64,000 nt of DNA from Spironucleus salmonicida (taxonomy: Eukaryota), in NCBI RefSeq assembly GCF_000497125.1, contig NC_090600.1, positions 558,001-622,000 on the forward strand, written 5' to 3'. Shown piece after piece: positions 3 to 48,979 of the stretch. How positions within the stretch are numbered: position 1 is the first letter of the stretch; each line of letters starts with the position of its first letter. Under the pieces are notes generated by a model. That model ran no database searches, had not been told where the DNA came from, and saw only the letters and a program-made list of their open reading frames with translations. A program made the position numbers and the translations under genes.

Positions 3-1883
3 AAATAGATCATTGTATTATAATAAAATATTAATGATTTGGATGCTAGATTTGATAGTTTATAACAAATAAACAATTAACTATAAGAAAACTTCTCAGA
101 AAATTAAAAAAATACATCATAAAAAGACATTACAATATAAAATTATGCAAAGGATTTAACCAATCTTTAGTTTCAATATACAGAAGTATAAAAAAATTTA
201 GCTCACTGTTAAGCATCAATGAATTCTTTTAATATTGATTTATAAAATTATTAAGACGTAATTTTTTAAAAAGAAAAAGAAATTATTAGTTTGAAAAGTT
301 AAATTTTACAGATAGAATCGCACAATTCAAAACTATAAAAATAAGACACTACTGAATATACAAAATCACAATAATTATCATATTTAGCGGGACCTTCACC
401 AGACACTAAAATAGGTACCAATACCTACCCAGCTACAGAATAAAACGAAATTCCTACCAATTAACATATTGAATCTGATTAATCCAATACACCAGGACTC
501 GATAATACTTACTTAAAAACACAATCATCTCTCACTAACTGCAAATTATTGCAAGAACAAGTTTATGCCCTAAATATCGAAAATTTATAGCTTAAATCTG
601 AGCATTTTCAAGCGTAAAACCTTGCACAAACCACTGCTCAGGAAATTGAACTCCTGAAAAACTAAATAGAAATATTAACAAATACAGTGAACGATTTGAA
701 CAGACAAAACTCGTCTTTTACGTCATTTTTAGATACCTCACAAACTGCAGAGAACTCAAAAATCAATAAAATTTTAACCTCGAAAACCGCAGAACTCACT
801 GCCCTGCACACCGAAAACTCAAACCTCCAATCTCAGCTCCAAATTGCACTACACTAAAATCTTCAGCTCACGCAGCGAATCGAAGCATAAGAAATGGAAA
901 TTCAAAATCAAATTGAAAAAATATAATTTTTAACTCAAAATTTAAATTCTCTAAAACAGTCAGAAACTTCGTACATCGAAATTCTCTCAGAAAACAACCC
1001 CCAAGTGCTCAAATTCGAACTGAGCGAGGCCGAAAAGCGTCTCAAAAGCGAGAAGTTGCAGGCCCAGGAACTCCTCAAAATCGCCGAAAAATTGCAGGAA
1101 AAACTTGACGCCAAAAAGTCGAAAATCGAGATTCTGACGAGCGAAAATCGGCGTTTTTAGCTCTAAATTATCGACCTGGAGAACCAGATTCAGCTTGAAA
1201 AAATGGGTCAAAATGAAGCGGATTTCGGCGGTTTTCAGGCCAAAATTAAGCTCATCGAAGAAGCGAATTTAAGCGTCTAGAGGAGTTTGCTTGAAGGTGA
1301 TAAAGGGAGCGGAAATGAAATAGGAGTGGAAAGTTAAAATCTAAATGCTATTTAAAAAGAAATGGAAAATCAAATTGTAAGTCAATTTGAAACTGAAATA
1401 AACGACTTAAAGGCTGAAAATGAGAATTTGAAGTAGCAGATTGACCGTTTGGAGCAGGAAATCGAAGCCCTGAGGGCGCAGAACGCGGGACTTTTGCAGG
1501 CCGAAGAAAACGATTTCCAGAAGGGCGAAGCTCAGATTCAAACAGAGCAAAACTGGGAATTAAACACCGTGGAAAAGGCCCCCGAGGCCTCAATTTAGAG
1601 CAAAAACTCGCCCCCGGACGGCACGGACGAGGTCATCGAGTACTACCGGCAGCAGCTGCACGAGGCGCACAACATGCTCCGGGACCCGAAATACAGCATG
1701 TACAGGCTCGAAACGATGCGCCACGACCACAAAGTACTGGCCAGGCAGTTCGACGCTGTGAGCCAGCAGCTCGCCGCCGAAAGGGAGGCGCAGAAGCGGA
1801 TGGAGGCCGCGAACGAGGTGCTCCGGATCGAGGTGCTGAACTTAAGCTGCGGCCGCAAAACGCTTGAAAATGAGGCTGAGTGA
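3..1883 (+). CDS. Long coiled-coil protein, 5' end outside window
   Basis: Frame 3 reads KQIIVLQQNINDLDARFDSLQQ from base 3 (TAA/TAG=Gln) and is in frame with track ORF 1674..1883. E/Q/K/L-rich. Ends GAG-TGA. Confidence 0.8.
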
Positions 1884-2324
1884 GCGTTGGACTTAACGAA
1901 GGTGAAGCATTTCGGTGTCTGCGCTAGGTAATTGTGGGGGAAATTAAGTAGATAGTAAAGTAGGGCTATTGAGGTTTGCAGAGTAAAAACAGTGTGTCTA
2001 GCTGCTTTTAAGGCTTATAACGACTGCCTGGGAAAGAGCGGCTCTGAAAGGTGCGTAAAACACAGTTTTCGTTTTTAAACTGAATTTAAAGCGAAGCTCG
2101 CTAATGATTATTTAAATTTATTAAATAATTGCCATTTAGGTCGAATTTTTACCAGTTAGCGTTCTCAACGGCCCTCTTTCACGTTTCAATCAGAATAAAA
2201 ATCAAAAAAATCAACCCCCTCGTAAACACCCCTGCAACCACCCCACTGCCGCCTCCTGAATTCAATAGAAATCCCATTTCGCAAACCCGTAGAATTTGCT
2301 CCATTTATTTATCATATATAACCA

Positions 2325-2670
2325 TATAATAATATAATAATATAATAATATAATAATATAATAATATAATAAATAATATAATAATATAATAATATAATAA
2401 TATAATAATATAATAATATAATAATATAATAATATAATAATATAATAATATAATAATATAATAATATAATAATATAATAATATAATAATATAATAATATA
2501 ATAATATAATAATATAATAATATAATAATATAATAATATAATAATATAATAATATAATAATATAATAATATAATAATATAATAATATAATAATATAATAA
2601 TATAATAATATAATAATATAATAATATAATAATATAATAATATAATAATATAATAATATAATAATATAAT
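2325..2670. repeat. AT-only tandem repeat, 8-bp unit TATAATAA, about 43 copies, followed by (TAT)n
   Basis: Directly visible. One interruption near 2371. Confidence 0.95.
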
Positions 2671-2820
2671 TATTATTATTATTATTATCATAATATAATT
2701 ATATAATTATTATTATTATTATAATTATTATCATCATAATATAATAATATAATTATAACAATATAATAATACATTCCTCAACTCCCTTCCACTTACTCCA
2801 ATTTTATATAATAATACAAC

Positions 2821-3696
2821 TCACTCCATAACTTCTTTCCCTTCCACAAGCCAGTATTTTCGAACGGCCTGGCACTCGTCGATACTCGCGAATTCGAGCT
2901 GAACGGAGTGGCCAAAAGTGCGAGATTTCAAAGCGTTGAAACTGAGGGCCTTTTCGAGGTCTGCCTGGCCCTCGCAGGCCAAAGTGATCTTCTTTAGCTC
3001 AAATTCGGCCGATTTTAGCTCATTTTCGTTGATTAGGAAGATCTCGTACGTCTTATTTCCAAGCGAATTGATGGACTTGAACGCGTACCGCTCGCGCAGA
3101 ATCTTCATTGAACTGAAATCGCAAATTATCGAATTCGAAATTTCGATCGAAAAATCGGATTGCGAGAGATATTTTTTTTAGGAGTGGAAAGTCGAAATCA
3201 ATTTGGATTTTTTCAAAAATTCTGATTTGTCTACAAGTGCTATAAAGAGCTGCTTTTGGAGGTGGTAGAACTGGTCAATGGGGAGCAGCTGGTTGATGAG
3301 CTCGTTGACCTAGTCCGGCGGGATCTGGTTGATGAGCACCGCGTACTGCTGCTGGTTGAAAATGATGTAGTGCAGCACGTACAGCAGCTCCGTCTGAAAC
3401 TGCTTCTCGGGGATCGTTATCTGGACCGGATTCTGCTGAATTTTGGCGTTCACGAGCTGCGCGAACGCTTTCACAGCGTGCGTGAGCTGGCTCTGCTGGA
3501 TGATGATAGAGGGCGACAGGAGCTCCACGAACTGGATGCTCAGCTCGATCAGCTGCGATTTCAGCATCCGAAAGTGCTTGAACGACTGGCAGACGATTCT
3601 GAGAGGGTTCTTCTGCAGAATGAGCCCAAATGACGAGAAAATGGTGTCCACGTGCGCGTGCAGCAGTTGTGGGAGCTTGGCTATTTCGATCGTCAT
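2821..3696 (-). CDS. Hypothetical protein, 291 aa
   Basis: Track ORFs 3310..3696 and 2821..3108 share a frame with no TGA between them. C-rich tract before ATG. Ends GAG-TGA. Confidence 0.8.
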
Positions 3697-5196: not shown

Positions 5197-6378
5197 ATGA
5201 ATAAATTTTTGTCATTTGGTATCCGAGCAACCGCTGGTTATATATTAATTTTACTCAATTTTCCAATTGCTGCAGCCGTTTTTTATACCATATTTAGTAT
5301 TTGTTTATATAATCCTAAATAATTTTAGTAAATTTAAGATGTTGCAATATTTTGCTTAGGTGTAACTAATTTTTATTTTCATATTGTTGCCGCTTAAAAA
5401 ATGAAGTGGATAAAGCCATTAAATTACTGTGTTAAATATGTAATCGTCACAATAGTAGCCACGTCTATAACAGTTATTTTCTTCTATTTTGATGCAACTA
5501 TAATGATAAGGTGGCTATAGCAAAAAATTTACTCATTAGTAGTAAAAGACTTATATTTTGCCACAGTATGTTTCTTATCTTAGTATTTTATTTGGAATCT
5601 CCACTGGAGTACAAATTTTCCAATCTAACTATTAGTTTGGTACTTAATTGGATGGTTGGTTTACTTTATTGCGCATATGATGGTCCCAATTCATCTACTA
5701 TGCTGTGTTCTTTATACCTTAATAATGAAATAGAGCATATTTCGCTTCGTGACATAAGAAATATGGACTGTTACATTTAGAATAACATGTTTTTCTGTAA
5801 CATTTATAATAAATTTTAGTATATGTTCGGAAGTTGCTAAATATTTTTATCCTAAAGATCCTGTATAATACATAACCAATGTAATATTCTTCATGGGCCA
5901 TCTTCATATGGGATTTATCTACGTAAGCCTAACTTTTACTCTTGAAATTCAAAAAATTGTACTTAAAAATAGAATTATGATCTATCCTTATATTTGCTTT
6001 TGTTATTTTTGGGCACTATAATTAGCAGTTCTCAACTTTTATATTTATCGTAAGATTTTTGTACCATATTTTCTCCATAAATACATAGGTAAAGAAATAT
6101 TCCCTATTGATAATTTATATAACACGGCACCATCAGGGTTTATAGCAAGATTATTTTTTTGCTTGATATTCTCTGAAAAAAAGGAAACAAAAGTAAAAAA
6201 TAAACATAAAAAATAAACACACCAAGATATGTAAGTGAAGAATGATGAGATGGAGAGTAAGACTATTTTAGTAAAATCAGCTTAAGAATAATAGTAATAT
6301 AACTAAAATGTAGATAATTTAGACGATATTTAAATTAGTACTGATGCCATTAGCGGTATGACTAACTTAGTCGAGTGA
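5197..6378 (+). CDS. Multipass membrane protein of unknown family, 393 aa; AT-rich paralog of 41770 and 60682
   Basis: MNKFLSFGIRATAGYILILLNFPI...TNFYFHIVAAQKMKW...MGHLH...DNLYNTAPSGFIARLFFCLIFSEK aligns collinearly with the 399-aa track ORFs. Ends GAG-TGA. Confidence 0.9.
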
Positions 6379-6387
6379 AAATTAGCC

Positions 6388-13339: not shown

Positions 13340-13441
13340 GTCCTATTTCGGAGCGGAAATGAAAACCCTTTAAATATTATCATAAATTACAAGTAATTAT
13401 TCACACTACGTCATTTACTCAAATCGCTATTATATATTTTA

Positions 13442-14787: not shown

Positions 14788-16665
14788 TCAGAAGCATCCT
14801 TGCGGTGTATCTGGCACTCTAAACTTTTATTTTTCATTAGGCAATGAATTTTTAGTAATAATTAACTTGGGCCCCTTGTTCAAATATTTATTTACCAGAT
14901 CATCATCAATTTTAACCTTTTAGCACTTAAATTCGCTGTAATCTCTTTTACTGATATCAACCACCCCTTACTAACCCATTTATGCCTGCTCCGCCTTCTG
15001 CTCATTCGCACTCTAAACCACCTGATTCATCTGATCGAGCAGACTCGTTTTTTACGCAACTGGCTATTTCAGAATATTAACCTTCCTATCGACCTCCTTT
15101 TCGCTAAATTCGTAATCCGCGTCATTCACCTCAACTTTCTTCATCTCGAACCGCTTGTACCCCAAATCGACGTCCTAAGAGCAGTAAATCGCATTTTACG
15201 GCGATTCCGCGTCAAATTACTCGCCCTCCACCTCCACCTCCGGCCCAATTTCGCCCATAAACTCCCGAATGTGATCGCTCGCCCGCAGCACCTTCACGGA
15301 GTCGAAAAATACCTCCAAAAGCTGCTTCTGGCGCATGTTTTCGTGCCGCAAAACGTCTATTTCCATCTGCAGCGATTTAACGAGATTTTCGGTATTTGGC
15401 CCCTTATTTTGCTCCAAAAAAACCGAATTCGACCTATTAACATCATCATTATCATTAATATCATCATTTTCCTCATTTTCACCCTCAAAACTCTCCCCAA
15501 AATCGCCCTCATCCACAACCGTCAAATTGCACCCACAGCGCCCGCAGCAGCAGCGGACGTACCCAACAGCATTTTTGTCCTCTGCGACGAGCCCAAAACG
15601 GCCAAAAACCGTCATTTCGAGGCTGCCGTCGAAGGCGATTTTTTCGGGCTGCGAGGGGCCCTTATTTGCCCTCAAATTCGTCCTGATGGCCTTGCAGCGA
15701 TTGACGAAATTGAGGCTCGAAAAGCTCTCCTCGAAGTGCGCCTCGCAGGGGCCAATGTTGCCGAAAATCGTCGTTTTGGCGTTGCCCGAAAGGCTGTTTT
15801 GGAGCAGTTTCGTGAGCGTCGAATCGCGGAACGGGACGTGTTTTTTGCGGCTCGAAAGCGCCAAAACGACGTTCTGCAGGCACGAAAGCGACTGGTTTAT
15901 GCACTTCGCCTCTTCGAGCTGCAGACCGCGCGAATTCGTCTTCTGGACGCGCTCGGAACCCGCCAAATCGCAAAAAGTTAATGTGGAGTGGAAATTCGAA
16001 TTGAAAGTGAAATTCAAACTCAAAATTGTGTGCGAACGAGACGAATTTGCGTTCATTTGCGTCTGCGCGTTGACTCTTCGGGAGGCTGATGACGTTAGGA
16101 GCGCGATAATCGAATTTAGAGTGGAAATTTGAATTTAAAGTGAATTGTGGTTGAAAAGCGAGGTCTCATTCTGCTTTAATTTCAGCGGCGTGGGGTTCTT
16201 TTGCAGCAGGTCGTAGATGTTGTTATTATAGAGTTGGACGTATTGTAGCGTGCAGGTAAAATTCTGGCTCGGAAGCTGCTAGAAAATGCTTTACAGCAGC
16301 CGTGGGAGGATGCCGTCCGTCTATTCCGGGTAAAACTGATTTTTACCCGTCAGCAGAGGCGAAGATTCGCTGCCAAAGAGCGTGTATGTTTTTCCTGAAC
16401 TGGTCTGGCCATACGTCAGAATCGTTCGGTTGATGCCATTCTGAATATCAGATAGTATACCCTCTTGGATGTAGTCATACACTTGGGTCTACTGATCATT
16501 TTCGTCAAAAACTCTATCAAATGTGAACTCTCTGCGCTCATAATCGCCACGCTGAATTCGCACCTGCTAGTTAGAAATTTTTATCGCAGCATTATTTTTC
16601 TAGGAGAATTTCAAATCCTAGGAGATCGGTGGTCGGATTCTGATAACTGTCTGAATTTAAGTCAT
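14788..16665 (-). CDS. Kinesin motor domain protein, 625 aa
   Basis: VIRIRP, FTFDRVF, YGQTSSGKTYT, NANSSRSH, DLAGSER, HVPFRDSTLTKLL. Confidence 0.95.
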
Positions 16666-25192: not shown

Positions 25193-25252
25193 GAGAGTGA
25201 ATCATAATATTTTTGGTGACTACCAGGCGGGTTGTTTTACAAAAACTATCGG

Positions 25253-25441: not shown

Positions 25442-25459
25442 GTGATTTTTGCGAATATC

Positions 25460-27844: not shown

Positions 27845-28350
27845 TTCTGATATTTATAAACTTAAGTAGTTTATAATAATTTGATTTATCTATTATTGAA
27901 ATAAAAATAATACGAAACTGGACTGATGGTCTAACAATAGAACTTTGTATACTTTATTGAATTGTGGAACTTCGAAATAGTTATAAATTTATTCTTAAAC
28001 CGAATAAAATATCACAAATATATTACATGGTAAAATTCACAGTTTCCGTTTCCATTAGAAAGTATTACGATAATTATTATGATAGTGTAATTGTGGAAAA
28101 CATAATACCTCTTATTATCAATATAATAGCAGGACTTAGTAACAAGTAATATTATCATATATATTATAATTTAACTTTTATTCATGTATACGTCTCATTA
28201 AGGGTGTATACTATCATAAAGTAAAAATAATTTATTATACAAATATATTATACATTATGATATTTACATCGACCCACAATCATGGTAACTTGGTATGAGC
28301 CGTAATATATCATATATCTCGTATCTTGTATTCGTTAACCTTAAATTTAA

Positions 28351-28782
28351 ATGGAGAAAGCGGAAAAGGAATCACTTGAGATACTGCGCAGAATTGAGGC
28401 ATGCTTCAAGGGTTAATTACTAGGAGAACTCCTCCATGCGAAGAGTACGCATCCAACAAAGCAATTCTGGACCAAGTAACAGGATGAAATGCTCCATTAC
28501 CTCAAGCAGACCCATCTTCTTAGCTACGGGCAGTTAGCATAACACATCAACGAGTAAACCTAGTCTACTTTTACTGCAAAGTAGTGCTAGCAGCATTGGA
28601 CACGTGTAATCTAGCCTGGAATTGTGAAAGGGCGGTGGAGCTAAGAAGAGGACCATATGCTAAAAATGCTCATAACGGACTAGCAACTAAGCTGTCGGGT
28701 TGCATCTAAGGTTTTAACAACCAGGACGTCGCAGTAGATCTGGAAACGGTGTCGGGATATGGGGATCGATGCACTTTAGTGA
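28351..28782 (+). CDS. Myb-like DNA-binding protein, 143 aa, copy 2
   Basis: MEKAEKESLEILRR... Mirror of 25460..25891. Confidence 0.88.
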
Positions 28783-28800
28783 GATATTCGCAAAAATCAC

Positions 28801-28989
28801 TCAAAAGTATTGGAACAATAGCGATAGGTCCTACTCGCTTATCTCCTATGTCTCTACGGAGTGCAGGTGTGTGTCTCGCTGCTCCCGGCCCTGCCTGTGC
28901 ATTATTTTTACACTCCTCATTTTGCTAAGAACTATCTAGGTCTCGTCTGAATAATGATACAATATAGTAAATTGGCAACATACTCTCAT
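28801..28989 (-). CDS. Putative microprotein, 62 aa, copy 2
   Basis: Mirror of 25253..25441. Confidence 0.4.
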
Positions 28990-29049
28990 CCGATAGTTTT
29001 TGTAAAACAACCCGCCTGGTAGTCACCAAAAATATTATGATTCACTCTC

Positions 29050-29301
29050 TCACAGCACGTCGCACTCGACCTCGCGCTCCCATCCCTCCGTCAGCGGCAC
29101 CTCGAACACAGCCTCATGCTCCTTAATCCGCTGAAGGATTACGCGCCCACCGCAGTTTTTCAGCAGCACCTCCAGCACCACCGGAAACTCGCAGCGGCGT
29201 CGTACACCGAAGCCACTGTCGCAGATCTTCACATTCAGGCTCACCACCCACGCTGGGATGCAGCTGCACACCGCCGCGTACTCCACCAGCTGCTAATTCT
29301 C
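29050..29301 (-). pseudogene. Duplicated 3' fragment of the 1412-aa gene
   Basis: Mirror of 24941..25192. No in-frame ATG between it and the upstream in-frame TGA. Confidence 0.7.
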
Positions 29302-29418: not shown

Positions 29419-30264
29419 ATGAACTTTTTCGAAGAGCTGCTCTAAGATAATCCTGATTCTATCTCTGGACTTATAAATTCTGGAACTACATCTCTTATAT
29501 CACCAATTTTCCCTTTTACGCACGCTCTAAATTTTGCAGCTTATCACAACCTCCTTAATGTGATTCCCTTGCTAACGCCTTTAAATTTTCCCCAAACAAA
29601 CCTGTCCGCGATCCACTACGCCGCATTAACAGACTCATTTTAAGTACTTCCGTTAATTACCTTGAATGCATCTCCAATTCAACTTTCAACTCCAATTTCT
29701 CCACTCCACATAGCGGCAATTTACAACGCCGTGAATTGTGCCCGTTTACTATTAGATTTTGCAAATGTCAACACAAAATATGAGTTCATGGGGCTCGAAT
29801 CGGGCCTCAATGCCCTTGAAATAGCCATAAAATTCCGCTCGAAAAAAGTAGTTGAACTTCTGTTTTTAATCGAAAAAACGGACGATTAAGCGCTTTTGGA
29901 GTGTTTAGATTTTGAAGGATAATTTGGAGTGGAAAATCGAATTAAAATTGACTTTTTAAACTTGCGCGTTGTGGGTGATTATGTTTAGTATAATTGCCAA
30001 TAGTAGCCTTTGGAATACGAACCAGTTTTCGATAACGGTGTTGAATAGACGCCCAATCAGGATACACAGGTCATCACTAGCGAGTTAGACGGTACGTTTT
30101 TAGTTGAGGATTTTAGGAGCGAAAACGAACAGTTAAGGTAGGAAAACGTGCGCTTAATTGCTGAAAATGAAGCATTGCGAGCACAAAATTAGCATTCTGC
30201 TGAAAAACTCATAGCCAGGCGAACTCCGCTCTAAAAGGGGCGCATGCAGGGGAGGAAAAAGTGA
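29419..30264 (+). CDS. Ankyrin-repeat protein with C-terminal coiled coil, 281 aa
   Basis: SAIHYAA, SPLHIAAIYNAVNCARLLL, NALEIAIKFRSKKVVELL. Ends AAG-TGA. Confidence 0.85.
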
Positions 30265-30318: not shown

Positions 30319-32682
30319 ATGTCCAATGTCCGCGTTTTCATAAGGGAGCGACCGTCCGCGGAACCACCAATATACACCTTTCAGCAAAACGATGGATGCG
30401 TAAAGCTGTCGACTAACAATGCCAAAACCACTCACCATTACACCCTAGACGGCGTTTTGCTGCCAAACGCGTCCTAAACAGATGTACTGAATTAGATAGG
30501 ACTACCTGCCGTCAAGCATTTGATGCAGTCTTATAACTCGTCGATTATCTGCTACGGGGCCACGTTCACGGGAAAGTCCTACACTGCCATCGGGGACGAG
30601 ACGAATCCAGGCCTCGCTCCGCAGGTTTTAGAGCAGATTTTCAAGAGCCTCGAGGCGCGCCAGAGCATTGCGAACTCCACGGTTTACATCTCGCTGCTAG
30701 AGCTGTACTTCGACAAGCCGACAGATTTGATCAACAACCAGCCGCTGAACATTCGCCAGAACGAGCAAGGATTTTTCTGTGACAATTTGACGACCGTCGA
30801 AATCAGCTCTGCTGAGCAGGGAATTTAGATCCTAAACAAGGCCATCTAGAACCGAATTGTGGGCTCAAATTACGCGAATGAGAAGTCGTCCCGGAGCCAC
30901 GTTTTGATCAATTTCGGTGTTCGGTAGATTAGCCGAGGTGACTAGGAGAGCACAGCGTCTGTACTCACGATTGTTGATCTGGCAGGCAGCGAGAGCATTC
31001 GAAAAGGAAATTCGGAGGGAATCAGACTGGCAGAGGCTTAAAGCATCAACAAGACACTGAGTACTTTGTGTCAGGTCGTGAATGCGCTTTCGACCCGAAA
31101 AGAGCATATTCCGTATAGAGACAGCAAGCTCACTAAGCTTTTAAGCTAGAGTCTCGGCGGAAACAGCTATACAAGCATTATCTGCACGATCGACTCATCG
31201 CAAGAAGATGAAAGCATCCAAAGCATCCAGTTCGCAAATCGCTGCAGAAATGTCGTCAACAACCCAAATATTCAGTACACAGACGTAGAAAAAATAGGTC
31301 AAACGCACCTAATCAAAAAGCTCCAGGAGGAGAATTTGTAGCTCAAAATTGAGCTAGAAGACACCAAAAAGCAAAAATAAACATTAGAAGAAACCATATA
31401 GCAATCTGAAGCACCATTTAACTGGAGCCAAGATGATATAAGCAAAACAGAGACGCTAAGCACCAAACAAACCTCGTTCAGACCAAAAAGCTCAGAAAAC
31501 ACATAATTTATCAAAAACTCTCAAATTTCTTAATTGCCCCAAAATGCACCCCAGACGTCCCAAATCGCCCCCCAAAAAGACTCAATTTCGGTCCTGCGCC
31601 AAAAATTAATCGCGAAAAACGACCAATTCCAGCAGGTTTCCAAGGAGCTCAGCTACCTTAAAGGCCAGAACCGCCAGCAGACGTCGGATTTCAAGGCAAA
31701 AATCGAAGATTTGACCGCTCAAATCGCGCAAAATTCGCAGCTTTTCGAGCTCAAAATGCGCGAAAAAGACGCCCAGAAACTCGACGCCGTCCGCAAAATC
31801 GCGCAGGGCGCAGATTCGCTCCTAAAAACTCAAATTTCGCTTCAAAATTCTACATTTTCCGCTCCTTTAGCGCCCGGAAACGCCGAAATCGACGCCCTGA
31901 TCGAGGACGAACGCGCGCAAATTCAGAGCGCAATGGACGTCCAAAATATGCAATTTAGAGAGCAAATCGACCGGAAATGGCAGTTTCAGCTCGACGAACT
32001 TGAACAAAAATTAGGAGTGAAAAGTCAAATTCAAAGTGAAATTTTGGAAAGTGTCCAAAATGCAAATTTTCAGCTCCAGGAGGCTGTGAAATGGCTCGTT
32101 TCGAGCTACAAGGCGGTCTCGAGCACGCTGCATCTGGCCCGCGAGGGGAAGCTGGACTCGTTCATTGTGAACGAATCGCAGGTGCTGCAGTACCTGCTCT
32201 CCCAGCAGAGCCCCGCAAAGCAGCTTTCTAAGCACCGGAAATCGATTCACACGTGTTTGATTCTGAGCGACGCCCAAATACCGAAATAATTACCTGGAAA
32301 AATTGCAAATATAATTCAATTTTTCACTCCTTTTTAAGGAGTGGAAAGCAAAAATGGAAATTGTAAAAAGCAAACTGGGATGTCGTTTACGAGGCCGAGT
32401 TCTGCGTGTTCTACGGCGAGCAGCGGGCTCAATCAGCCGCATCTGAAGACGGGTTTCGTGAAGCCGAAGCCGGCGGCGATTCACCTGAACATGAACGTGC
32501 ACATTTCGCCGCGGCCTCAGAGCGGCACGCTGTCGCGCCACAGCACCGCGCAGGAAATCTCGTCCGGGAGGCCGAATTCGGGGTTCCAGAGCAGGCCTGG
32601 TAGCGGTTTCGGGACGAACACTGGGAGCTGCCAGGGGACGGCCGAGCTCTCTAAAAAAGCGTATTAGCAGTGGGGGTTCTGA
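30319..32682 (+). CDS. Kinesin motor domain protein with coiled-coil stalk, 787 aa
   Basis: VRVFIRERP, YGATFTGKSYT, NEKSSRSH, VDLAGSE, HIPYRDSKLTKLL. Joins four track ORFs in one frame. Confidence 0.93.
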
Positions 32683-36362: not shown

Positions 36363-39300
36363 TCACTAAAGCCTCGGGAGCCCGCTGCCGCTCCCCGCCT
36401 TCGTTTTCCCGCTCTTCAGTGGCGTGGCACCATTGCTGATCGTCTTCGTGGCCGCCTGAAGACCGCCGCTAAAGCTGTCGTTTTTGGCCTGCGCCTTCAG
36501 CATCGCCTCGGCTGGAACGCCTGGAATTTGCATCGTACCGACTTTTGATGATTTGTCAGAAAACCTCTTATTGTAGCTCTCCTCTCTGTCCAATAACTGC
36601 CGCTTGTACCATTCTGTCTGTTTCGCGATATTCTTCAGCTCCTGCTCGCGCACTTGCACCATTTCCGACAACTTTTTGATGCGCTCCAAATCTTCAGGCC
36701 GCGACGGCCTGTTGTCAAACTGCGCGTGAAGGTCGCGAATCTTGTTTTTGAACTCCTGGAGCTCCTCCTGGTGCACTAATTTCAACTGTTCCTACTGCGT
36801 TTTCTGCTCCTCGAGCTGCTGCGCGTACTCGTTTTGCTGCTCTTTCAGCTCGTTTTTGAACAGTTTTTTCTGTCTTTCTAGGTCAACCACGTGCTCACGC
36901 TTCAGCTCCTTGATCTTTTCGTTAAAGATCTCGTTCTAGCTAGAAATTTGAGAGTTCAATTTCGCGATTTCGTCGGTTAATTGTGAGATTTTCGACTATT
37001 TCGACTGAGTTTCGGCCTGCGAATCGCTCAATTGGTGCTGCGTCTCTTGGAGTGATTTTTCAAGCATTTTTACCTTGGTTATTATTTCCTGGTTTTTGAA
37101 ATTATTTTTCTCTTTAATTTGCGTTATTTCGGCCGTCAGGTCCAAAATCTACTTGTTTAGCGCAGTTATAGCGGTTTTTAGCCCCAGAACCTCATCGGTG
37201 CTGCTCTTATTCGTTTTTTTGGCCATTTCGAGCTCCAAACGCAGCTTTTCCATTTCCTTGGACTGCTCAAAATACGCCTCCTCAAACTTCTTTTTCTCGG
37301 CGTTAAATAGCTCCTCCATCTGCTTTTGCTGCAGCTCGTTCTTCGAGACAACATTTTTGAGTTTCGATTCCGCTTCTTATTTTATTTGTTATATATCATT
37401 ATTATATGTAATCTATTATTATTAAAATTAATTCTACAGTTTCTCAATTTATTGATTTTTGTCGCTAAGTTCCGCCGAAAATCTCGCGAGTTAGCTCTTC
37501 AGATCCTCAATTATTGAGGATTGGTCGCCAGAATCGGTTTGAATTTGCGTTATTTGGCGTTTTAAAGCCAAAATTTCAGTTTCTGCCGTTTTGAGCGAAT
37601 TCGAAATTTCTAAAATTTTGCTGCTCAAATTCTCAATTTCTAGCGATTTTTGGACGAAAATTTTGTCTTTTTCGCTCATTTCGGATTTTAAATTTGAAAT
37701 TTCCAGCAAAAGTTGCGATTTCACGTCGTTCAAAGCGCCGCTTGAGCCATTTTGAGCCCTAATTATGTAATCGCTCACACCCTCCAAAAGCAAGTTTTCC
37801 ACGCTTTGCAAATCGACCTTTTTGAGCTCCTGATCCAGCAGCGTTTTCAGGCTCAAAATTTGGTCTTTTAGCTCCTTTATGCTGCTATTTGTCCGGCCTT
37901 AAATCTCTGAAATTAGAGCGTTTAGAGCACTTTTTAGGGCCTGAATTTCCGCCCTGGAGTCGCCCTGCGCCTCTAGAAGCTTCGCATTCAACTGCGTCAG
38001 TTCGTCGCTCAGCGAGAGTTTCTGGCCGTTTAGCGATGAAATTTGAGCGTTTTACTGAGAAATTTGGAGCTTCAAGGCCGAAATTTCGGCTTTTAGGTCA
38101 GTTATTAATACAGAAAGCTGCTTCTCCTAGCTTCCTGCGTTCTCAGCTCTGCTTTGGAGGTCTTTTTTGAGCTTTTCAATTTCGCATTTCAGCTCCGAAG
38201 TTTCGGTCATGTAGGCGGATTTCAGCATTTCTAGCTCCTAAACCGACGCTTTCAACTGCTCCATAACGGTTTTCATTTGGTCAGTCGTCTGAATTAGGTT
38301 CTTCTTCAGCTCCTCGCCAGACTTCTCCAAATTCTTTATTTAGGCCTTTAAAGCCTCTAATTCGGTTTTTAAAACGTTTTTAGCCAGTTTCTCATCACCT
38401 AACAATTTCGTCAGATTTTGATTTTCCACTCCCTCCTTTTCAAGTTTCTCCCTAAAGAATTAAGCCTCCTTGCGCGCGTTTTCGAGCGCCAATTGGAGCT
38501 TCCGCTCGTTCTCGGACGTCGAGCCCAAATTCGCACGCTCCTGCTCGAGCTAACTGAGCAGCTCCTGCAGCTCTTTCGTGAGGGTCTGAATTTTGCCCTC
38601 AGCGGCCGAAATGACCTCATTTTGACTATTTATCACGTTCTGCGACTGCTGATTTTACAGATTTAATTTGTCAATTTCGCCGAAAATTCGCTAATTTTCG
38701 GCCGTCAACTGTTATATCACATCTTTATTTTCCTAAATCTCGGTCCTGGCCTTCGCCTCCGAGCTCTTCAAAACTGCAATTTACGCTTCAAACTGCGCAG
38801 AAACGCGCCCGAATTGCGCGATTTCGGCCTTCAGTTTCTCGACTGTTTCGAGCAGCCGCGTGACGTTCGCCTGCGCCTGCTGGGCCTGCTCTGAGAGCTC
38901 CCGGAGGCGCCTCTCCGCCTCCGCCTGCAGCCGCTCCGAAGTCTGGACTGCCACGATCCGGTCCTGCCGCGCAACGCGCAAATCGGACTGAAGAGTCGAA
39001 ATTTGGGAGTGGAAAGTCGCAATTTCAGCCGAAAATTCAGAATTTTAGCGTTCAAGTTTCTGCAATTTCGCCTGAAGATCCGTGTTTTCCGCGGTGAGCT
39101 TGCTGCGCAGAGCCTCCAGCTCGGCGCCCTGCGCGCTGCGGGCGAGGCTGATCGAGTTTTGGGAGTCGCGCCGGATCTGCTCCACTTCGCTAACTAGCTG
39201 CTCGACGCGCATCCGCACGGCCTCCTTCTGCTTCTGGGAGCGCGCCTCTTACTCCTTTTTGAAGGTTTGGAACTTCTCAAGAAATTGCGTTTTTTCTGTC

Positions 39301-39551
39301 TCAAGGCCCTTGATTTTGGCCAGCGCGGCCTGGATTTCGATAGTTTGTTGTCCAGCTCGCTGCTTTGTAGACTCCTGAAACTGGCCTAGCCGCTGCTCGC
39401 AGCCGCGCGCGAGCGCGTCCAGCTCCGACTCGTACGTCTTCGTCAGCAGGTTCAGATCCAGGTCACGATCCTCCTGTCGGCAGTTCAGCTGGTAGACCAC
39501 TTTGGTAAGCTGCGCCACCTTCTTGCACAGTAGCGAGTGTAGGTTCTCCAT
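36363..39551 (-). CDS. FAM184-like coiled-coil protein, 1062 aa
   Basis: N-terminal KKVAQLTKVVYQLN and C-terminal SRPEDL...REESYNKRF match FAM184A/B signature segments as I recall them. Four track ORFs share the frame. Ends TAG-TGA. Confidence 0.8.
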
Positions 39552-39718
39552 TCTAAAATTTTTGGTACTATATTATTTAATAGATAATAATATATGTCTG
39601 GTGAAAGGAGTGGAAAATTGAGGATTGTAAAATTTCGAAGATTCAGTTCGTAGATATTTGAACCGTTTGGGTGGCTAATTGGTCTATTTTATCATAGCGA
39701 CATAAATAAATCTTGTTT

Positions 39719-40039
39719 TCAGCAGCTAACGAGGAGCCTGGGGCACCGTTACTGCGTGTGAGTAAATGCTTCATTCCTGCGATTGGCAAAAATTTTTATC
39801 TAGGAAATTACCAGTAACGGTCTTTAGCGCGTAGTTTTCAGCTACTTATTGCTAGACGGCTGCAAATACCTGAAATAGGAACTTATGGCTGTAGTAGTTA
39901 TTGGGCTCTTTTACGCAGAATGGCTGCGTCGTAATTTTTCGATGATGTGCTTATCGATAAATTAGGTTATGAAGTCCTTCTAATACCCTGTATTACTAGT
40001 GACAGAGCCTGTGCTGCTAACTTTTTAGGTTTGTTCCAT
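39719..40039 (-). CDS. Possible hypothetical protein, 106 aa
   Basis: MEQTQKVSSTGSV...PRLLVSC. A competing + strand frame is also open. Confidence 0.3.
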
Positions 40040-40335
40040 CTTTAGGTAGACTTTTCAGAGACTACGGGTGTATTAGGTAACTGTGGAGGATGCCAGAGTG
40101 CGTCAAAGGCTTCAAGGCTTAGACGTACGCTTAGCGCGGCCTCGTTACCGAATTTAGGGGTAATTTTTCATTTTGGTAGTAGGAATTTTGTTATCAATGC
40201 GTCATTACTCATTTACAATTATTTAATGTGCAGGATATGCGAATCTCAAATGCGTCCGATAATATTTTTTCGTATTCAAAGAAAAACTGATTGTGAAATA
40301 TAATATTATTATATAGTGTAATATATAGATATAAA

Positions 40336-41064
40336 ATGATCTCCTGCCTATGTGCGATCCTTGCAAAGCTGAAATCGGAGACATAGTACCGGGTGCAGCC
40401 CGCCTACACGTTCGCCTCACAAAGTAACCCTATTTTTATGCTCCAGTTCACCGATGGTACTGCCTGTGGGCCGCTAACTGCCTAATTCGACATTGAATTA
40501 GAGTTTTCATGCGAAACGCTCGAACTCAGGCCGATGCTCAGGCATACTGATAGTAACACGTTCATGATCGGGGGAATGCCCATCCTCTCGGTCCTTACAC
40601 TCCCTGGACCTCCAGCGACTGCAACCTCCTCGATCGTAGCACCATAGCCCTTCACAACACGTTCACAGCTCCAAATTGTGATCGCCGACGCGGCTGGAAA
40701 TCCGCTGCCGCAATTCTGCTCTGTTGACGCGATCCAGCTACTGGCGCGCGTGATTGTCGTTCCTGTGAGCGCAGTCTTCGACACTATCTGCCTTGTGGAG
40801 ATCAGTTTCCAAACCTACAGTTTCAACGAGCACATAGATATGTCTGGGACCGTATTCGGGACGCCCATCGGCGCCGTGACACTCGCGTTCCAATTCGGTG
40901 GCCGAAGCCACGTAGCGATCGACTTGACTGTAGCGGTGACACTTATAGTCACTAGTGCTGCGATTTGCGTCTGGATCGGCGTGAAGAAGCTCACTGGCCG
41001 CCGGCAGGCGCCGCATGCGTGTTTAGGGGAGGAGAGTTGTGGTGTGGCTGTGGGTGGAGTATGA
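40336..41064 (+). CDS. Type I membrane protein, 242 aa
   Basis: MISCLCAILA... in frame with track ORF 40678..41064. C-terminal TM followed by KK. Confidence 0.75.
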
Positions 41065-41761
41065 GTTGCTTGGGAAGAGGAAGTGCAGAGGTGCATACCA
41101 AAACAAGCTACTGGGTAGGTGGATTTGGGCATAAAAAATGTGAATAAGGAGATTAGATGTTATATGCGTTTGGTTGTATAAACGCGCAGTTTTAATAACA
41201 TAATCGAGCTTTAAAATCAAAAAGCAGGGTTTAAGAATTTATCAGTTTCTGGTAGTATGGAAAATTAAGCAGATAGTTGTCTAGTTAATTTTATTTGAAA
41301 ATCTCAGTTAAAAATAGTAGGTAATGATAGTATTTAAAATTAGCAAAATTTAGTGATTTATTACGCTCAAAATCCTATTCAGTGAATTAGAATAATATAT
41401 CCAGGATGAATTTATGGAATGTTTTCAACGAAGTATAGTGTTAAATTTTTGCTGTCAGGAAGTTACTTACTCAAAATTGCTGATGAATTATTTAATCAAG
41501 GATGTATGGGGAATTATAGGGGTAGTCTTACTCCTTAGAGTAAGTAATAATATTTCAAGGTATTAAATAGTTTTATAAAATCGGTAAAATTTCTTAAAGT
41601 AATAAGTTTTTCTACGTTTCTGTAGAAATAAGACAGTACAAAATATATCAAATTATAATTCGCAATTTGGTAGAATTAATAATAAAAGAATTATTATTTT
41701 GTTACCTGTAGTTTAGTAAATCATATTATATAAGTAATTCAAATAATATTCATTATTATCC

Positions 41762-42953
41762 GTCTTTAAATGAATAAGTGGCTCTCGTTCTTTGTGCGGG
41801 CCGTGGCGGGGTACGTGCTGACGCTGCTGAACTTCCCCATCTCCGCTGCCGTGTTCTACATCATATTTGCGATATGCAACTACAACGCTAAGCAGTTCCA
41901 GGAGATCCAGGACGTGGCCATCATCACCCTGGGCATCACCAATTTTTACTTCCACATCGTGGCGGCGCAGAAGATGAAGTGGCTCAAGTCCGTCAACTAC
42001 TTCCTGAAGTACCTCATCCTGACCGTGATCACGGCCTCGCTCACCGTGGTGATCTTCTACGTGGACTCCACGATCATGATCCGCTGGCTGCACCAGAAGA
42101 TGCTCATGCTCACCCTCAAGGACCTCTACTTCGCGACCGTGGCCTTCGCCTCGCAGTACTTCATCTGGAACCTGCACTGGAGCCAGGACTTCCCTATCCA
42201 GCTCCTCGTCTGGTACCTCGCGGGTTGGCTGGTGTACTTCCTGGCCAGTGTGCTGATCCCGATCCATCTGCTCGGCTGCATCCTCTACACGCTCGTCATG
42301 AAGCAGACCATCTTCCGCTTCGTCACGCTCGAGATCTGGACGCCGCGCTTCCGCATCGCCTGCTTCGCCGTGACCCTGTTCATCAACTTCATGGTCTGCT
42401 CGGAGATGGCTCGCTACTTCTACGTGCGCGACCCGGCGGGCTACCTGATGAACGTGATCTTCTACATGGGCCACCTGCACATCGGGCTCACCTATGTCAG
42501 TCTGAGCTTCACGCTGGAGATCCAGAAGTGGGTGCTCAAGAACCGCCTCATGATCGTGCCCTACATCTGCTTCTGCTACTTTTGGGGCATCCAGCTCGCC
42601 TTCCTCAACTTCTTCCTCTACCGCAAGGTCTTCGTCCCGTACTTCCTGCACAAGTTTATCGGGCCCAACGTCCTCCCCGTGGACAACCTCTACAACACCG
42701 TCCCCTCGGGCTACATCGCGCGGCTCTTCTTCTGCCTCATCTTCTCCGAGAAGCGGGAGGAGAAGCGCTGCCGCGTCGTCCGGACCAAGATAGCCAAGTT
42801 CCGCGAGAGCCGGCGCTGCAACAAGCAGATCCCGAACCGCTCCGACGACTCCATCGCGAACGACGTCGACGACGCGAAGTTCATCCAGGAGCAGGTCCAG
42901 GACGTCCTCGCCGTCCACCCCGACATGCTGCAGCAGTTTGACGGAACAGTGGA
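41762..42953. repeat. Inverted duplication, copy A (pairs with 59499..60690)
   Basis: About 1.19 kb. Four synonymous differences seen by eye. Confidence 0.95.
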
Positions 42954-43068
42954 TCTTATAAATTTCTAAAAATTCGGCGAACCTATAATTAAATACTCTA
43001 ATAGGAACGAGTATAATGTTGAGAAAATAAACGACCCAATATAATAAAAAGTTTTATACAAAGTATGA
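41770..43068 (+). CDS. Multipass membrane protein of unknown family, 432 aa, GC-rich copy A
   Basis: 399-aa track ORF read through TAA (Gln) to TGA at 43066-43068. Confidence 0.9.
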
Positions 43069-43081
43069 AAAATACAGTCAC

Positions 43082-46438: not shown

Positions 46439-46506
46439 AATTTATTTTCTAATATACATTATTATATAAATTAATAAATATTAAGTTCCATTTGAATTCC
46501 GCAAAA

Positions 46507-46704
46507 ATGACTGATTATATTACTGGTAAACAGTACGATGACATAGAAATCTAAGAATACATATCTTCACAAAATATTAACAAATATCTTATTGAAGGTT
46601 GCATTGAGCTAGCTAAAGCTCGTCCTGAAAAGCCTTTACTATGGTTAGGATAGTGGATGGTTAAAAATAATAAGAGAAAGCCATAAGTTACATTTAACGA
46701 GTGA
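46507..46704 (+). CDS. Dpy-30 motif protein, 65 aa
   Basis: YLIEGCIELAKARPEKPLLWLGQWMVKNN. Ends GAG-TGA. Confidence 0.8.
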
Positions 46705-46843
46705 AGTTTATTAATTGCACGTTTTAATTCGTATTTAACGCAGTTACCGATTTAATAAGTATAATATCCCTGAATAACTAATTTACTATAATGATATAAT
46801 AATCCACTAACGAAGAAAAACTTACCACTTCATATATTTAAAG

Positions 46844-48979
46844 ATGGCACCAAAATAGCGAACGCCACCAGAAGACACTCAGACTACAGATCAATCTGTT
46901 GATAAAGTCACATAAGAAGCATTATCTTAAATACCTAAAAAGATCTCTTTGCACTCCTAATTACCAAATTTCAAAGATGTTTCAAAGTAATAGCAGACTG
47001 TTCTATTTATATCAAAACTGCGACAGTGCAACAAGCTTGTACGTGTGGATGACGCGGAACTAAGAAAACTTAAGCACCTAGTTTTATATCAGCTGTTAGA
47101 TTTTGTAAATGCTCAGAATAATAATTTTCCACTAGAGTCTATTCCTGACTTTTTCAACACCGTTTCTATTAATATATTCCGTTAAGCACCTAAGCCTTAG
47201 GCCGAAGATGAAGACGTTTATGACCCAGAGGAAGACGAGCCAACAGTTGATTAACATTGGTACCATTTACAATTTGTATACGAAATGCTACTGCGTTTCG
47301 TCTATTCTTCGTAAAACTAATAACCTGAATACCAGAAACTAGTTAAAAAGCACATTGACGGCGATTTTGTCATCAGACTAATGCAGCTTTTCAATTAGTC
47401 GGACCCTAGAGAGCGCGATTATATCAAAACAATTTTACACAGAGTTTACGCCAATTTCATGGGCCTTAGGGCTTATATTCGCTCAGCACTCAAATCAGAA
47501 CTCCAGCAGTTCATTTGCGGCGCGCAGCAGCATTCTGGAATTTGCGACATCCTAGAAATCCTCGGCTCCATCATAAACGGTTATGCCACGCCCCTAAAGC
47601 AAGAGCATACGCTCTTCTTGACGCAGTGCCTAATTCCGCTCCACAAAGTCCAATTTATCAAGCAAATCCTTCCACAATTATCTTATTGCGTTTCCAAGTA
47701 CATCGAAAAAGACAGTTCGATCTCTGCCTACATAATCCACCAAATTCTAGGCTATTTCCCGAGACTGAACTCGCTCAAAGAGGTCTCATTTTTGACTGAA
47801 ATCGAAGAGTTGCTAGAGCTAATTCCGTCGAAATAGCTCTATATCGACGCCGAGCCTAGAACGGTGCCGCTGCAAACAGCCGGAAACGAACTCTGGCTGT
47901 TCGCACAGCTTTTCGAAATCGTCGCTCAGTCGATCTGCTCGATGCATTTCCAGGTCGCTGAGAAGGCGATTAACATCCTCAGCAACTCGAAATTCATCTA
48001 GCATATTTAATTCGCGAATTAAGAATTCAATTCGAAATTCAATTTCCTCTCCACTTCGATCAAACCGGCACTCTCGAAAATCGGAGAGAACACGAGTCAT
48101 CAGGTTTCGCCGCAGGACTTGAAGTATTCGCCCATTTTCACGCTCGCGAAGGCGCTCCGAGCGAACTGCACGAGCCACTGGAACAGCAACATCAGAGCTC
48201 TCTCTGAGCAGGCGCTGAAGTAGGTCCTCGCGCTGCAGGAGCAGGAATTTCAGAATTTGGACCAGAAGATCGTCCAGGAAATCGTTTTACGCGAAGTGCA
48301 GCGCCAGACGCGCGATTCGACCTGGAATTAGATCGCGTAAATGGCCCACGGGCGCGTTAAGGGCTTTTCGGACTATTTCGAGGTCGTTGAGGAAATTGAA
48401 TAAAAGGGGCGCTTTTTGACTGCCCTGCAACTGAAATAAGGCTTCGTTCCGGGCTACGAATCGGAGCAGATCGGTGAGATCGCGATCTAGGCCGCCGAGG
48501 TGCCCGAGGACCCACTTTTCTGCAGAATTGAGGAGCTCTGCATCGGGCACGTGCAGCTGACACCAGAGCTGCTCACGGGCGTGATCGATGGCTTCTTCCT
48601 GAGCTACCAGGGCGTCGGGAAGGCGCTGAATCGGGCGCAGTACAAAATCGACGAAAACGAGACGCCAGCGGACTACCTGCTCAAAAAGGGTTTCAACCTG
48701 AACAACTAGGAGATGCAGGCGGACGTCTGTAAGCGCATTTATGAGCTCCTGCTGGAGAAGCAGATCGTGAAGTGCAACCGCGTCACCATTGCGGAGGGCG
48801 TGAAAACGATCCAGCAGCGGCTCCCCGGGAAGCGGCTCGCGAACCGGCGCGCCAGCGCGGGCATCCCCGTCGCGCTCGGCATCCGCAGGAAGTCTGTCAC
48901 GCCGATGAGCATGGCGCAGGCGCAGGCCGCCGCGGAGCTCAAGGGCTTCGAGAAGCACAACATCAACGAGAAGAAATGA
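46844..48979 (+). CDS. Protein phosphatase 2A regulatory subunit B' (B56), 711 aa
   Basis: DPEEDEP, WYHLQFVYE, DPRERDYIKTILHRVY, LEILGSIINGYATPLKQEH, HFQVAEKA, HWN, RRKS. Confidence 0.95.

Follow-up and report, generated by a model that had tools for sequence, protein, structure and literature searches.

In a 64,000-nucleotide (nt) stretch of the Spironucleus salmonicida genome (RefSeq assembly GCF_000497125.1, contig NC_090600.1, positions 558,001 to 622,000; hereafter the window), the ten-nucleotide word GGAG[T/C]GGAAA occurs far more often than local dinucleotide composition, codon usage or the encoded proteins predict. The word makes up the core, at the 5' end, of a longer element that is asymmetric, GGAGTGGAAA-N-TYRAAWT (18 nt). 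Most of its exact copies lie inside open reading frames (ORFs), on either strand, and its reverse complement resembles the C-rich box that precedes many start codons in the window. We tentatively read the element as a promoter-like module that lies within coding DNA and binds a factor, its core being the consensus of the C-rich core-promoter box. All counts given below refer to this one window and to both of its strands, positions are numbered from its first nucleotide, and mismatch classes are scored against the T-form of the word, GGAGTGGAAA.

Abundance of the word

GGAG[T/C]GGAAA is present at 11 exact sites. Eight of these are GGAGTGGAAA (T-form; 1323, 3181, 15985, 29926, 32338, 39006, and 39607 on the plus strand and 38423 on the minus strand), and three are GGAGCGGAAA (C-form; 1306 and 13350 on the plus strand and 31856 on the minus strand). 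A first-pass annotation, made from the letters of the window, had listed 11 exact copies, and all of its coordinates and strands were recovered. The four one-mismatch variants that it named were found as well: AGAGTGGAAA at 16118, GGAGTGAAAA at 32014 and, as the reverse complement, at 32321, and GGAGAGGAAA, also as the reverse complement, at 48043. Together with 12 further sites they make up the 16 one-mismatch copies of the T-form. Dinucleotide shuffles of the whole window contain a mean of 0.18 exact sites and at most 1, and none of 100 shuffles reaches 11. Shuffling within blocks of 200, 500, or 1000 nt, which keeps the local G+C (GC) content, gives means of 0.21, 0.20, and 0.20, respectively, with a maximum of 2 (500 shuffles each). 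The proposal that the motif stands far above chance is therefore upheld, with 11 exact copies against about 0.2 in local dinucleotide shuffles.

The excess of the T-form is sharply concentrated on the exact word. Compared with 300 shuffles, 8 copies without mismatch were observed where 0.08 are expected (shuffle maximum 1), 16 copies with one mismatch where 2.84 are expected (maximum 8), 67 with two mismatches where 41 are expected (maximum 62), and 364 with three mismatches where 348 are expected (maximum 402). With a tandem array masked, together with one of the two arms of every inverted duplication, GGAGTGGAAA tops all 10-mers with a GC content of at least 0.3, with 8 copies against 5 for the runner-up; in 100 local shuffles the top 10-mer of this class has four copies in 62, five in 35, and six in 3. 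Other frequent 9- and 10-mers, for example GAAATTTCG and AGTGCAATTT, have no common context and were rejected as candidates. Paired AGTGRAA boxes at a fixed spacing were likewise rejected, with just two cases (at 19 nt). Most exact copies (9 of 11) and most members of the extended family are on the plus strand, regardless of the orientation of the gene in which they lie.

Constraint at the DNA level

When TAA and TAG are read as glutamine and TGA as the sole stop codon (genetic code 6), the window resolves into full-length, intron-free genes; under the standard or bacterial code it contains few long ORFs. Given these gene models, nine of the exact copies fall in true ORFs, where the C-rich strand of the motif is on the sense strand in four and antisense in five. 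Codon-aware controls were run on 26 coding sequence (CDS) models, in which a duplicated gene is represented by its first copy only; the models total 37,893 nt and hold these nine copies. Permutation of codons within blocks of 50 or 100 codons leaves a mean of 0.14 copies, and 0 of 1000 permutations of each kind reach nine. A dicodon-preserving Euler shuffle of each gene leaves a mean of 0.79 copies (0 of 300 reach nine), and synonymous shuffles that keep the protein leave means of 0.89 in 100-codon blocks and 1.6 in 50-codon blocks (0 of 1000 in each case). The largest CDS count in any codon-aware shuffle is six, and nine is reached in 0 of 4300. The dicodon-preserving shuffle had been named in the first-pass annotation as a way to refute the motif; it does not reproduce the motif count (0.79 versus 9).

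The choice of codons points in the same direction. Within the 26 CDS models, four of the six GVE tripeptides are encoded by GGAGTGGAA and a fifth by GGAGTAGAA, where codon usage predicts 0.036 per occurrence, and three of the four FHS tripeptides are encoded by TTCCACTCC, where 0.022 per occurrence is predicted. The code 6 gene models confirm the readings of the word as GVE in sense and as FHS in antisense. The claim that the constraint is exerted at the DNA level rather than the protein level also holds, since all of the codon-aware shuffles fall short of nine CDS copies and the GVE and FHS codons are fixed. The constraint acts on the DNA, not on codon usage or on the protein. All seven T-form copies in CDS share a single codon register, GGA-GTG-GAA-A, four of them read in sense as GVE and three in antisense as FHS. 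Given its prior share of 0.39 from codon frequencies, finding seven of seven copies in this register has a p of about 0.001, or of about 0.13 when the registers encoding Trp (EWK) or Pro (FPL) are excluded as not tolerated. This register lock reads as the protein's filter on a DNA element. As a separate puzzle it was rejected, because codon usage and the avoidance of Trp- and Pro-coding registers largely account for it.

It is very improbable that the word results from codon or dicodon usage, or from a peptide that recurs in coiled-coil proteins. Most host genes do encode kinesins or coiled-coil proteins, in which E, N, Q, S, and I are abundant, and a GNN/NNC periodicity favors the register that is seen. 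However, the four codon-aware nulls are 6- to 60-fold too low, and one DNA word encodes the unrelated peptides GVE and FHS in addition to SGN, FSAP, and SLQIQISTL. Synonymous codons are fixed and two exact copies are intergenic, so that this explanation is contradicted already in this window.

The extended element

The sequence TYRAAWT follows the core at +2 to +8 in five of the seven intragenic T-form copies, compared with 11 of 676 cases after GAAAN generally (those five included); the pattern was set after inspecting the copies, and its margin over the background is large. A 26-mer, GGAGTGGAAANTCGAATTNAAANTGA, with 23 specified positions, is common to four copies. It is matched without mismatch at 15985 and 29926 and with two mismatches at 16118 and 32014, and the copy at 3181 has three. 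A second flavor, GGAGTGGAAArTCrAAATC, has no mismatches at 3181 and 38423 and one at 1323. The 26 nt are translated in four different ways, as FNSNFHS and SLQIQISTL (both antisense, in one kinesin, kinesin A), as GVENRIKID in an ankyrin-repeat protein, and as GVKSQIQSE in a second kinesin, kinesin B. The SLQIQISTL copy in kinesin A uses another register and lies 133 nt from the FNSNFHS copy.

Contigs of other genomic loci share 19 to 28 nt with the element and have a sharp boundary at its GGAG end. Their matches cover 29924-29951 (3 mismatches), run from 29925 onward, or extend up to 29943, 38432, or 38439. Because these contigs match both the core and the tail, the element is dispersed beyond the window. 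Within kinesin A it fills the variable loop between SSRSH and DLAGSE, which reads SNFHS here and NNYQS in the Hexamita orthologue. The length of the loop is the same in both, which argues that the element arose in place and not by insertion. A mobile element or a fragment of one (a miniature inverted-repeat transposable element, a short interspersed element, or the tail of a long interspersed element) was rejected on the same ground, and because the ORFs stay open. Homology through a whole unit, as a mobile element would have, was not seen; similarity stops at the GGAG end and fades after 18 to 26 nt.

Base composition around the copies

The 40 nt 3' of the core have a mean GC content of 0.30, compared with 0.47 for the surrounding 520 nt. 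This difference is seen at 11 of 11 exact copies (Wilcoxon p = 0.001), and in T-form copies the 40 nt on the 5' side are low in GC too. Relative to the local background, the GC content of the 3' flank is -0.18, -0.115, -0.064, and -0.014 at sites with 0, 1, 2, and 3 mismatches, respectively. Copies lie in an AT-rich trough of about 40 nt on each side, within DNA that is otherwise GC-richer. On a larger scale, the GC content within +-500 nt is at least 0.40 at 10 of the 11 copies, versus 33% of all positions. Mean GC is 0.44 to 0.48 within +-500 nt of the copies, 0.32 to 0.41 at distances of 600 to 1,400 nt, and again 0.41 to 0.43 about 1,600 to 2,400 nt downstream.

Fifteen GC islands (at least 0.45 within +-250 nt) are present in the window. 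Five of these hold 9 of the 11 copies and ten hold none, and the strongest islands are among the empty ones (41.9-42.9, 47.9-49.8, and 59.2-60.6 kb). The suggestion that the motif tracks GC-rich islands is therefore correct in part: 10 of the 11 copies lie where GC is at least 0.40, but 10 of the 15 islands are empty and the copies occupy local AT-rich troughs. No consistent GC step was found across the copies in the window, and the idea that the motif forms the edge of GC patches was rejected for this reason. GC patches cross gene borders, and a single ORF can have one AT-rich and one GC-rich end. The AT-rich stretches of the window are largely coding as well.

The window also contains several repeats. 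An inverted duplication (41759-42956 and 59496-60693, 99%) contains a GC-rich (0.58) gene for a multi-pass membrane protein without a Pfam family, and an AT-rich paralogue of this gene (5197..6375) is also present. Just three sequence differences were seen among sequencing runs (41853, 42195, and 42495), all within the duplicated gene. The GC-rich duplication fits the published description of duplicated regions in S. salmonicida as GC-richer (44.7% versus 30.7%; PMC9509377). A perfect inverted repeat of 1,927 nt (24941-26867 and 27375-29301; 100% complementary, with a 507-nt spacer) has GC-rich outer ends, and no protein families were found in its ORFs. Between two genes, a tandem array of 58 units of ATATAATA occupies 2316-2771.

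Likeness to the C-rich promoter box

For S. salmonicida, Xu et al. (2014) described an 11-nt C-rich motif that 16.7% of genes have about 10 bp upstream of the ATG, where it follows a TATA tract (PMC3916229). The promoter architecture given in the same account consists of a TATA/AT peak, a C-rich dip near -10, and an A-rich initiator (PMC3916229). We compared the 90 nt upstream of 26 start codons in the window and scored the best match to TTTCC[A/G]CTCC, the reverse complement of the word, in -45..-1. A C/T-rich box is present at about -25..-8 upstream of many start codons. Examples are TTTCCGCTCC in the protein kinase gene (which is copy 13350 on the other strand, at -20..-11), CTTCCATTCC in the PRPP synthetase gene, TCTCCATTCC in the nucleoside diphosphate kinase (NDK) gene, TTACCACTTC in the gene for a B56 phosphatase subunit, and AACCCACTCC in the ankyrin gene.

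With at most three mismatches, TTTCC[A/G]CTCC is found on the sense strand of 10 of the 26 genes, and all of these matches start at -26..-16. The antisense control gives 0 of 26 and the interval -145..-100 gives 3 of 26. After mononucleotide shuffling of the 45-nt upstream sequences, a mean of 3.1 genes match, and 0 of 1000 shuffles reach 10. The proposed relation to a C-rich promoter element is thus supported by the boxes of 10 of 26 genes versus 0 of 26 in antisense, and the link between motif and promoter box is real, although not tight. Copies 13350 and 39607 had been described as lying 5' of ATGs. This is correct in substance, but both do so on the opposite strand, with their reverse complements at -20..-11 of the kinase gene and at -65..-56 of the ATG (39551) of a coiled-coil gene, respectively.

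Two other signals were considered for the word. The poly(A) signal AGTGA was rejected, since no exact copy lies at a stop codon, both strands are used, and 10 of 25 stop codons carry AGTGA instead. A target or source of small RNAs, such as the 26-nt class of Giardia, is disfavored because both orientations occur in mRNAs and because Dicer and Argonaute as well as RNA-dependent RNA polymerase are reported to be absent from S. salmonicida (PMC3916229).

RNA-like contigs near the copies

Contigs from three runs of one study (X5, X6, and X8), of which the RNA nature is itself a guess, were examined; such contigs do not show strand, internal starts, or levels. They follow the genes one by one, show no joints across the window, and range in depth from 2 to 2,500. 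Several contig ends carry sequencing adapters, and the type of adapter at a contig end indicates the RNA strand. This inferred reading of strands and ends is correct for two known genes, B56 (5' end at 46852) and a minus-strand gene (3' end at 35454). For the five genes checked, no contig starts before the ATG, which places the true starts some nucleotides farther upstream.

Two deep contigs begin close to family members. The contig 48071..49016 has a 5'-type adapter on the left and a 3'-type adapter on the right, and its depth is 2546, versus 171 for the upstream B56 contig (X5). It begins within the B56 ORF, 19 nt after the diverged family member TTTCCTCTCC (48043-48052). In X5 the 3' part of B56 thus forms a contig of its own, at roughly 15-fold the depth of the B56 part, a pattern suggestive of an internal transcription unit or of a stable 3' fragment. 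The box of the B56 gene itself, TTACCACTTC (46822-46831), is 19 to 29 nt before the starts of the B56 contig (46850-46860). The B56 ORF (46844-48976, plus) continues without a stop codon into a 212-amino-acid extension that has no Pfam family; the first ATG in this extension is at 48341, and no ATG is found in the preceding 270 nt.

The second contig, 39646..40261 on the plus strand, starts 30 nt after copy 39607 and has adapter-marked left ends at 39646 and 39653. Its depth is 273, versus about 58 for its neighbors (X6). This contig shows no convincing ORF, and a search of 39560-40340 against Rfam found nothing at E <= 1; the contig may represent an abundant non-coding RNA some 600 nt long. 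These contigs are a weak hint that family members can adjoin RNA 5' ends, and prove nothing for the other eight intragenic copies.

Copies and their host genes

Under code 6, the window contains at least 12 Pfam-supported genes, full-length and without introns. Those identified include cysteine synthase, a protein kinase, two kinesins with complete motor domains, a papain-type protease, an ankyrin protein, the B56 phosphatase subunit, PRPP synthetase, a Tsr3-like protein, NDK, an MFS transporter, and several long coiled-coil proteins. AGTGA overlaps 10 of 25 stop codons, and AAA precedes 10 of 25 start codons. The published S. salmonicida genome (12.9 Mb, 33.4% GC, 3 introns) stops only at TGA, which the poly(A) signal AGTGA overlaps, and its start codons are preceded by a TATA tract, a C-rich box, and an A-rich initiator (PMC3916229). 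The code, the stops, AAA before the ATG, and the absence of introns in the window match this genome, consistent with a hexamitid diplomonad. The best non-self matches of kinesin A are from Hexamita inflata (37% identity) and Giardia muris (40%), and best non-self protein matches across the search are just 37% to 40% identical. A ciliate origin, which the code would fit, was rejected because the genes lack introns and their nearest proteins come from diplomonads. No relative was found in metagenome contigs. No tRNA genes were found in the window, and the whole window has no Rfam match at the gathering score. The genes that bear copies encode kinesins, coiled-coil and ankyrin proteins, and proteins of no assigned function.

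The coiled-coil ORF 3..1880 (plus) contains two exact copies, both in sense: the C-form at 1306..1315 (plus), read as SGN (GG-AGC-GGA-AA), and the T-form at 1323..1332 (plus), read as GVE and with the flank GTTAAAATC (subfamily B, one mismatch). A T-form copy with the extension GTCGAAATC (3181..3199, plus) is antisense in the ORF 2824..3696 (minus), where it is read as FHS. The C-form at 13350..13359 (plus) is intergenic, and the protein-kinase ATG that it precedes is at 13339 (minus). Kinesin A (14791..16665, minus) has the T-form that heads the 26-mer at 15985..16010 (plus; 0 of 23 specified positions mismatched), which is antisense within the variable loop of the motor domain (FNSNFHS). The one-mismatch core AGAGTGGAAA heads the 26-mer at 16118..16143 (plus; two mismatches) and is also antisense in this gene, in another register (SLQIQISTL). 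In the ankyrin-repeat ORF 29419..30261 (plus), a T-form copy heads the 26-mer at 29926..29951 (plus; no mismatches) and is read in sense as GVENRIKID.

Kinesin B (30319..32679, plus) contains the C-form at 31856..31865 (minus), of which the C-rich strand is the sense strand of the gene (FSAP). Its one-mismatch core GGAGTGAAAA, heading the 26-mer at 32014..32039 (plus; two mismatches), is in sense (GVKSQIQSE). An inverted pair at 32321..32347 consists of TTTTCACTCC (one mismatch, minus), 7 nt, and an exact GGAGTGGAAA at 32338; it lies in the C-terminal tail of kinesin B and within the RNA-like contig of that gene. The 1062-amino-acid coiled-coil ORF 36366..39551 (minus) has one T-form copy in sense (38423..38432, minus; extension ATCAAAATC at 38414..38432; GVENQN) and one in antisense (39006..39015, plus; TFHSQ). 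The T-form at 39607..39616 (plus) is located in the 95-nt gap between the ATG of this gene (39551, minus) and the left end of the transcript-like contig (39646). A one-mismatch family member at 48043..48052 (minus; plus strand TTTCCTCTCC) is inside the B56 ORF, after a 50-nt AT-rich tract. Family members in opposite orientation are paired at 29684-29935, 31856-32347, and 38423-39015, always in the order TTTCC..CTCC and then GGAG..GAAA, so that their C-rich, promoter-like directions converge on the enclosed 7 to 580 nt. The arms at 32321-32347, which are 7 nt apart, could form a 10-bp hairpin.

Interpretation and rival explanations

If the element is a promoter-like module, as we tentatively propose, it would be recognized by a protein of the diplomonad that binds DNA in a sequence-specific manner. 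Its reverse complement, TTTCCRCTCC, would be the perfect form of the C-rich box that stands about 10 to 20 nt upstream of start codons, beside the initiation site. The intragenic copies would then be modules of an AT-rich tract and a C-rich box laid over coding sequence on either strand. Such modules may recruit the same factor as the promoter boxes, and may render chromatin accessible or initiate transcripts that are internal, antisense, or bidirectional; the protein would accommodate the element through GVE or FHS at tolerant sites. We infer binding by a factor and initiation at the intragenic copies from the sequence and its likeness to promoter boxes. A more general claim is possible but doubtful, namely that an 18- to 26-bp factor-binding element is kept genome-wide in CDS, in any frame and on either strand, where it fixes GVE or FHS and their synonymous codons, and that it is a landmark of initiation, possibly in both directions, or of open chromatin within genes and may seed GC islands. 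Such an element would amount to a second, regulatory code over the coding one in a very compact, intron-poor eukaryotic genome.

Several observations weigh against the promoter-like module. Only one of the 11 exact copies (13350) is in the canonical promoter place (-10/-20), and nine others are in ORFs. No start codon was found within reach in the C-rich direction for these nine intragenic exact copies, and CDS hold more perfect copies than promoters do. By inspection, the TYRAAWT extension is absent from the promoter boxes of the window. AT-rich genes contain no copies, nor do 10 of the 15 GC islands, and a general promoter role leaves this unexplained. In an unbiased k-mer count over -35..-4, TATA-like words dominate, and the C-containing k-mers (TTCC in seven genes, CCTTT in five, TTTCC in four, and TTCCA in four) overlap the TTTCCA half of the word alone. 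The likeness to the published motif (PMC3916229) is judged from the 26 upstream regions of this window, not from the published logo. Furthermore, the contig that starts at 39646 is on the G-rich side of copy 39607, opposite to the orientation of a promoter box. RNA-like contigs pass unbroken through the copies at 29926, 31856, 32338, 38423, and 39006, although contigs cannot reveal internal starts either way.

A functionless dispersed short repeat, copied and pasted by short-patch ectopic conversion or templated repair and tolerated at harmless residues, is a rather unlikely source of the copies. Such a repeat would spread in GC-richer, conversion-active DNA, consistent with the 10 of 11 copies at a +-500-nt GC of at least 0.40, and the higher GC of duplicated regions in S. 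salmonicida (PMC9509377) hints that conversion shapes GC. The long identity between copies also fits copying (23 of 23 specified positions over 26 nt in two copies, and two mismatches in two more), as do the 19 to 28 nt shared with other loci up to a sharp GGAG-end boundary and the presence of 9 of 11 exact copies on one chromosome strand independent of gene strand. The bias in codon register needs no function either (p about 0.13 with the Trp and Pro registers removed). However, the core is much better kept than the tail, with a 100-fold excess at 0 mismatches versus 5.6-fold at 1, which resembles selection on a site. The kinesin loop acquired the element without insertion or change in length, no target duplications or paired ends were seen, and the AT-rich trough reaches about 40 nt on both sides, well past the shared 18 to 26 nt. 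The core, moreover, is the promoter-box consensus in the right place and orientation.

Break hotspots in yeast are nucleosome-free, promoter-like gaps within GC-rich domains, and a recombination hotspot, at which a bound factor opens chromatin and draws breaks whose GC-biased repair builds GC-rich patches, would produce a similar picture here: copies in a short AT-rich trough inside GC-richer DNA, with GC of 0.44 to 0.48 within +-500 nt and lower values 600 to 1,400 nt away. GC patches that ignore gene borders, and the AT-rich paralogue (5197..6375) of the GC-rich duplicates, also fit a regional, non-coding cause. We nonetheless regard this explanation as unlikely. Ten of the 15 GC islands, the strongest included, have no exact copy, there is no consistent GC step across the copies, and a word of 50% GC is easier to keep in GC-richer DNA anyway. 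Sex and meiosis are not established for the organism, and the few differences among runs are all in the duplicated gene. The notion in the first-pass annotation that the motif could mark hotspots of recombination or GC-biased gene conversion, replication origins, or chromatin boundaries was not substantiated; GC is only mildly raised within +-500 nt of the copies, and most islands are empty. Some other chromosomal role, whether in replication origins, at cohesin or boundary sites, or as an architectural signal oriented by strand, is less probable still. The element is long (18 to 26 bp) and asymmetric with an AT-rich flank, it occurs in four clusters 7 to 14 kb apart (1.3-3.2, 13.4-16.1, 29.7-32.3, and 38.4-39.6 kb), and it is biased 9 to 2 to one strand independent of gene strand. 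This bias alone is not significant, however (two-sided binomial about 0.07), no exact copies are found within 40-64 kb, and a landmark of this kind leaves the likeness to the promoter box unexplained.

In diplomonads, about 72% of the genome is coding and intergenic gaps measure about 400 bp (PMC3916229), which raises the question of where their regulatory information sits. If the promoter-like module is real, the coding sequence of diplomonads would carry cis-regulatory or chromosomal signals. Some "single" ORFs would then hide internal transcription units, for which the B56 ORF with its deeper 3' sub-transcript is a candidate, and analyses of codon usage and selection in these genomes would need such sites to be masked. 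With the 18- to 26-bp element as bait, the protein that binds it could also be sought among the many Myb-like and zinc-finger proteins reported from the species. If the copies are instead a neutral copy-paste repeat, they would indicate unusual short-patch conversion in a putatively asexual protist.

Comparison with known systems

The promoter box of S. salmonicida is already known, while a perfect, extended intragenic form on both strands is unreported in the literature searched. No report of GGAG[T/C]GGAAA words was found in the literature on diplomonads, their promoters, and antisense transcription, and the 2014 genome paper (PMC3916229) is the only one in the literature searched to describe a C-rich motif of Spironucleus. 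The motif search described in that paper covers upstream regions alone, and its account of the motif reports nothing intragenic (PMC3916229). As described there, the C-rich motif is similar to the element in being C-rich and about 10 to 11 nt long, in the occurrence of upstream boxes just before the start codon, and in its AT-rich flank, which here is also found at the intragenic copies (11 of 11 exact copies). It differs from the element, of which 9 of 11 exact copies are in ORFs, on either strand and without a start codon behind them. Relative to the promoter boxes of the window, the intragenic copies are far more uniform and have an extra conserved tail of 8 to 16 nt. The letters AGTG are common to the word and to the poly(A) signal AGTRAA/AGTGA of Giardia and Spironucleus (PMC3916229). 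Unlike this signal, the exact word reads AGTGG, is absent from gene ends, and is found on both strands; the one-mismatch variants GGAGTGAAAA (32014 and 32321) do contain AGTGA.

Transcription-factor sites that double as recombination hotspots include the M26/CRE (cyclic AMP response element) and oligo-C motifs of fission yeast, and PRDM9 motifs mark hotspots in mammals. The element would resemble these motifs as a short, specific word that is bound by a factor, is able to work within CDS, and is associated with GC-biased repair tracts. In contrast to them, most GC islands in the window are without the word, and no PRDM9-like system is known in diplomonads. Chi, KOPS (FtsK-orienting polar sequences), and uptake sequences are oriented words of bacteria that are recognized by known machines (RecBCD, FtsK, and uptake receptors, respectively). 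Like the element, these 8- to 12-mers occur within genes far above chance and in more than one frame, have fixed synonymous choices, and favor one strand. The element differs from these bacterial words in that its host is a eukaryote, its strand bias is weak (9:2), and its core matches a promoter box.

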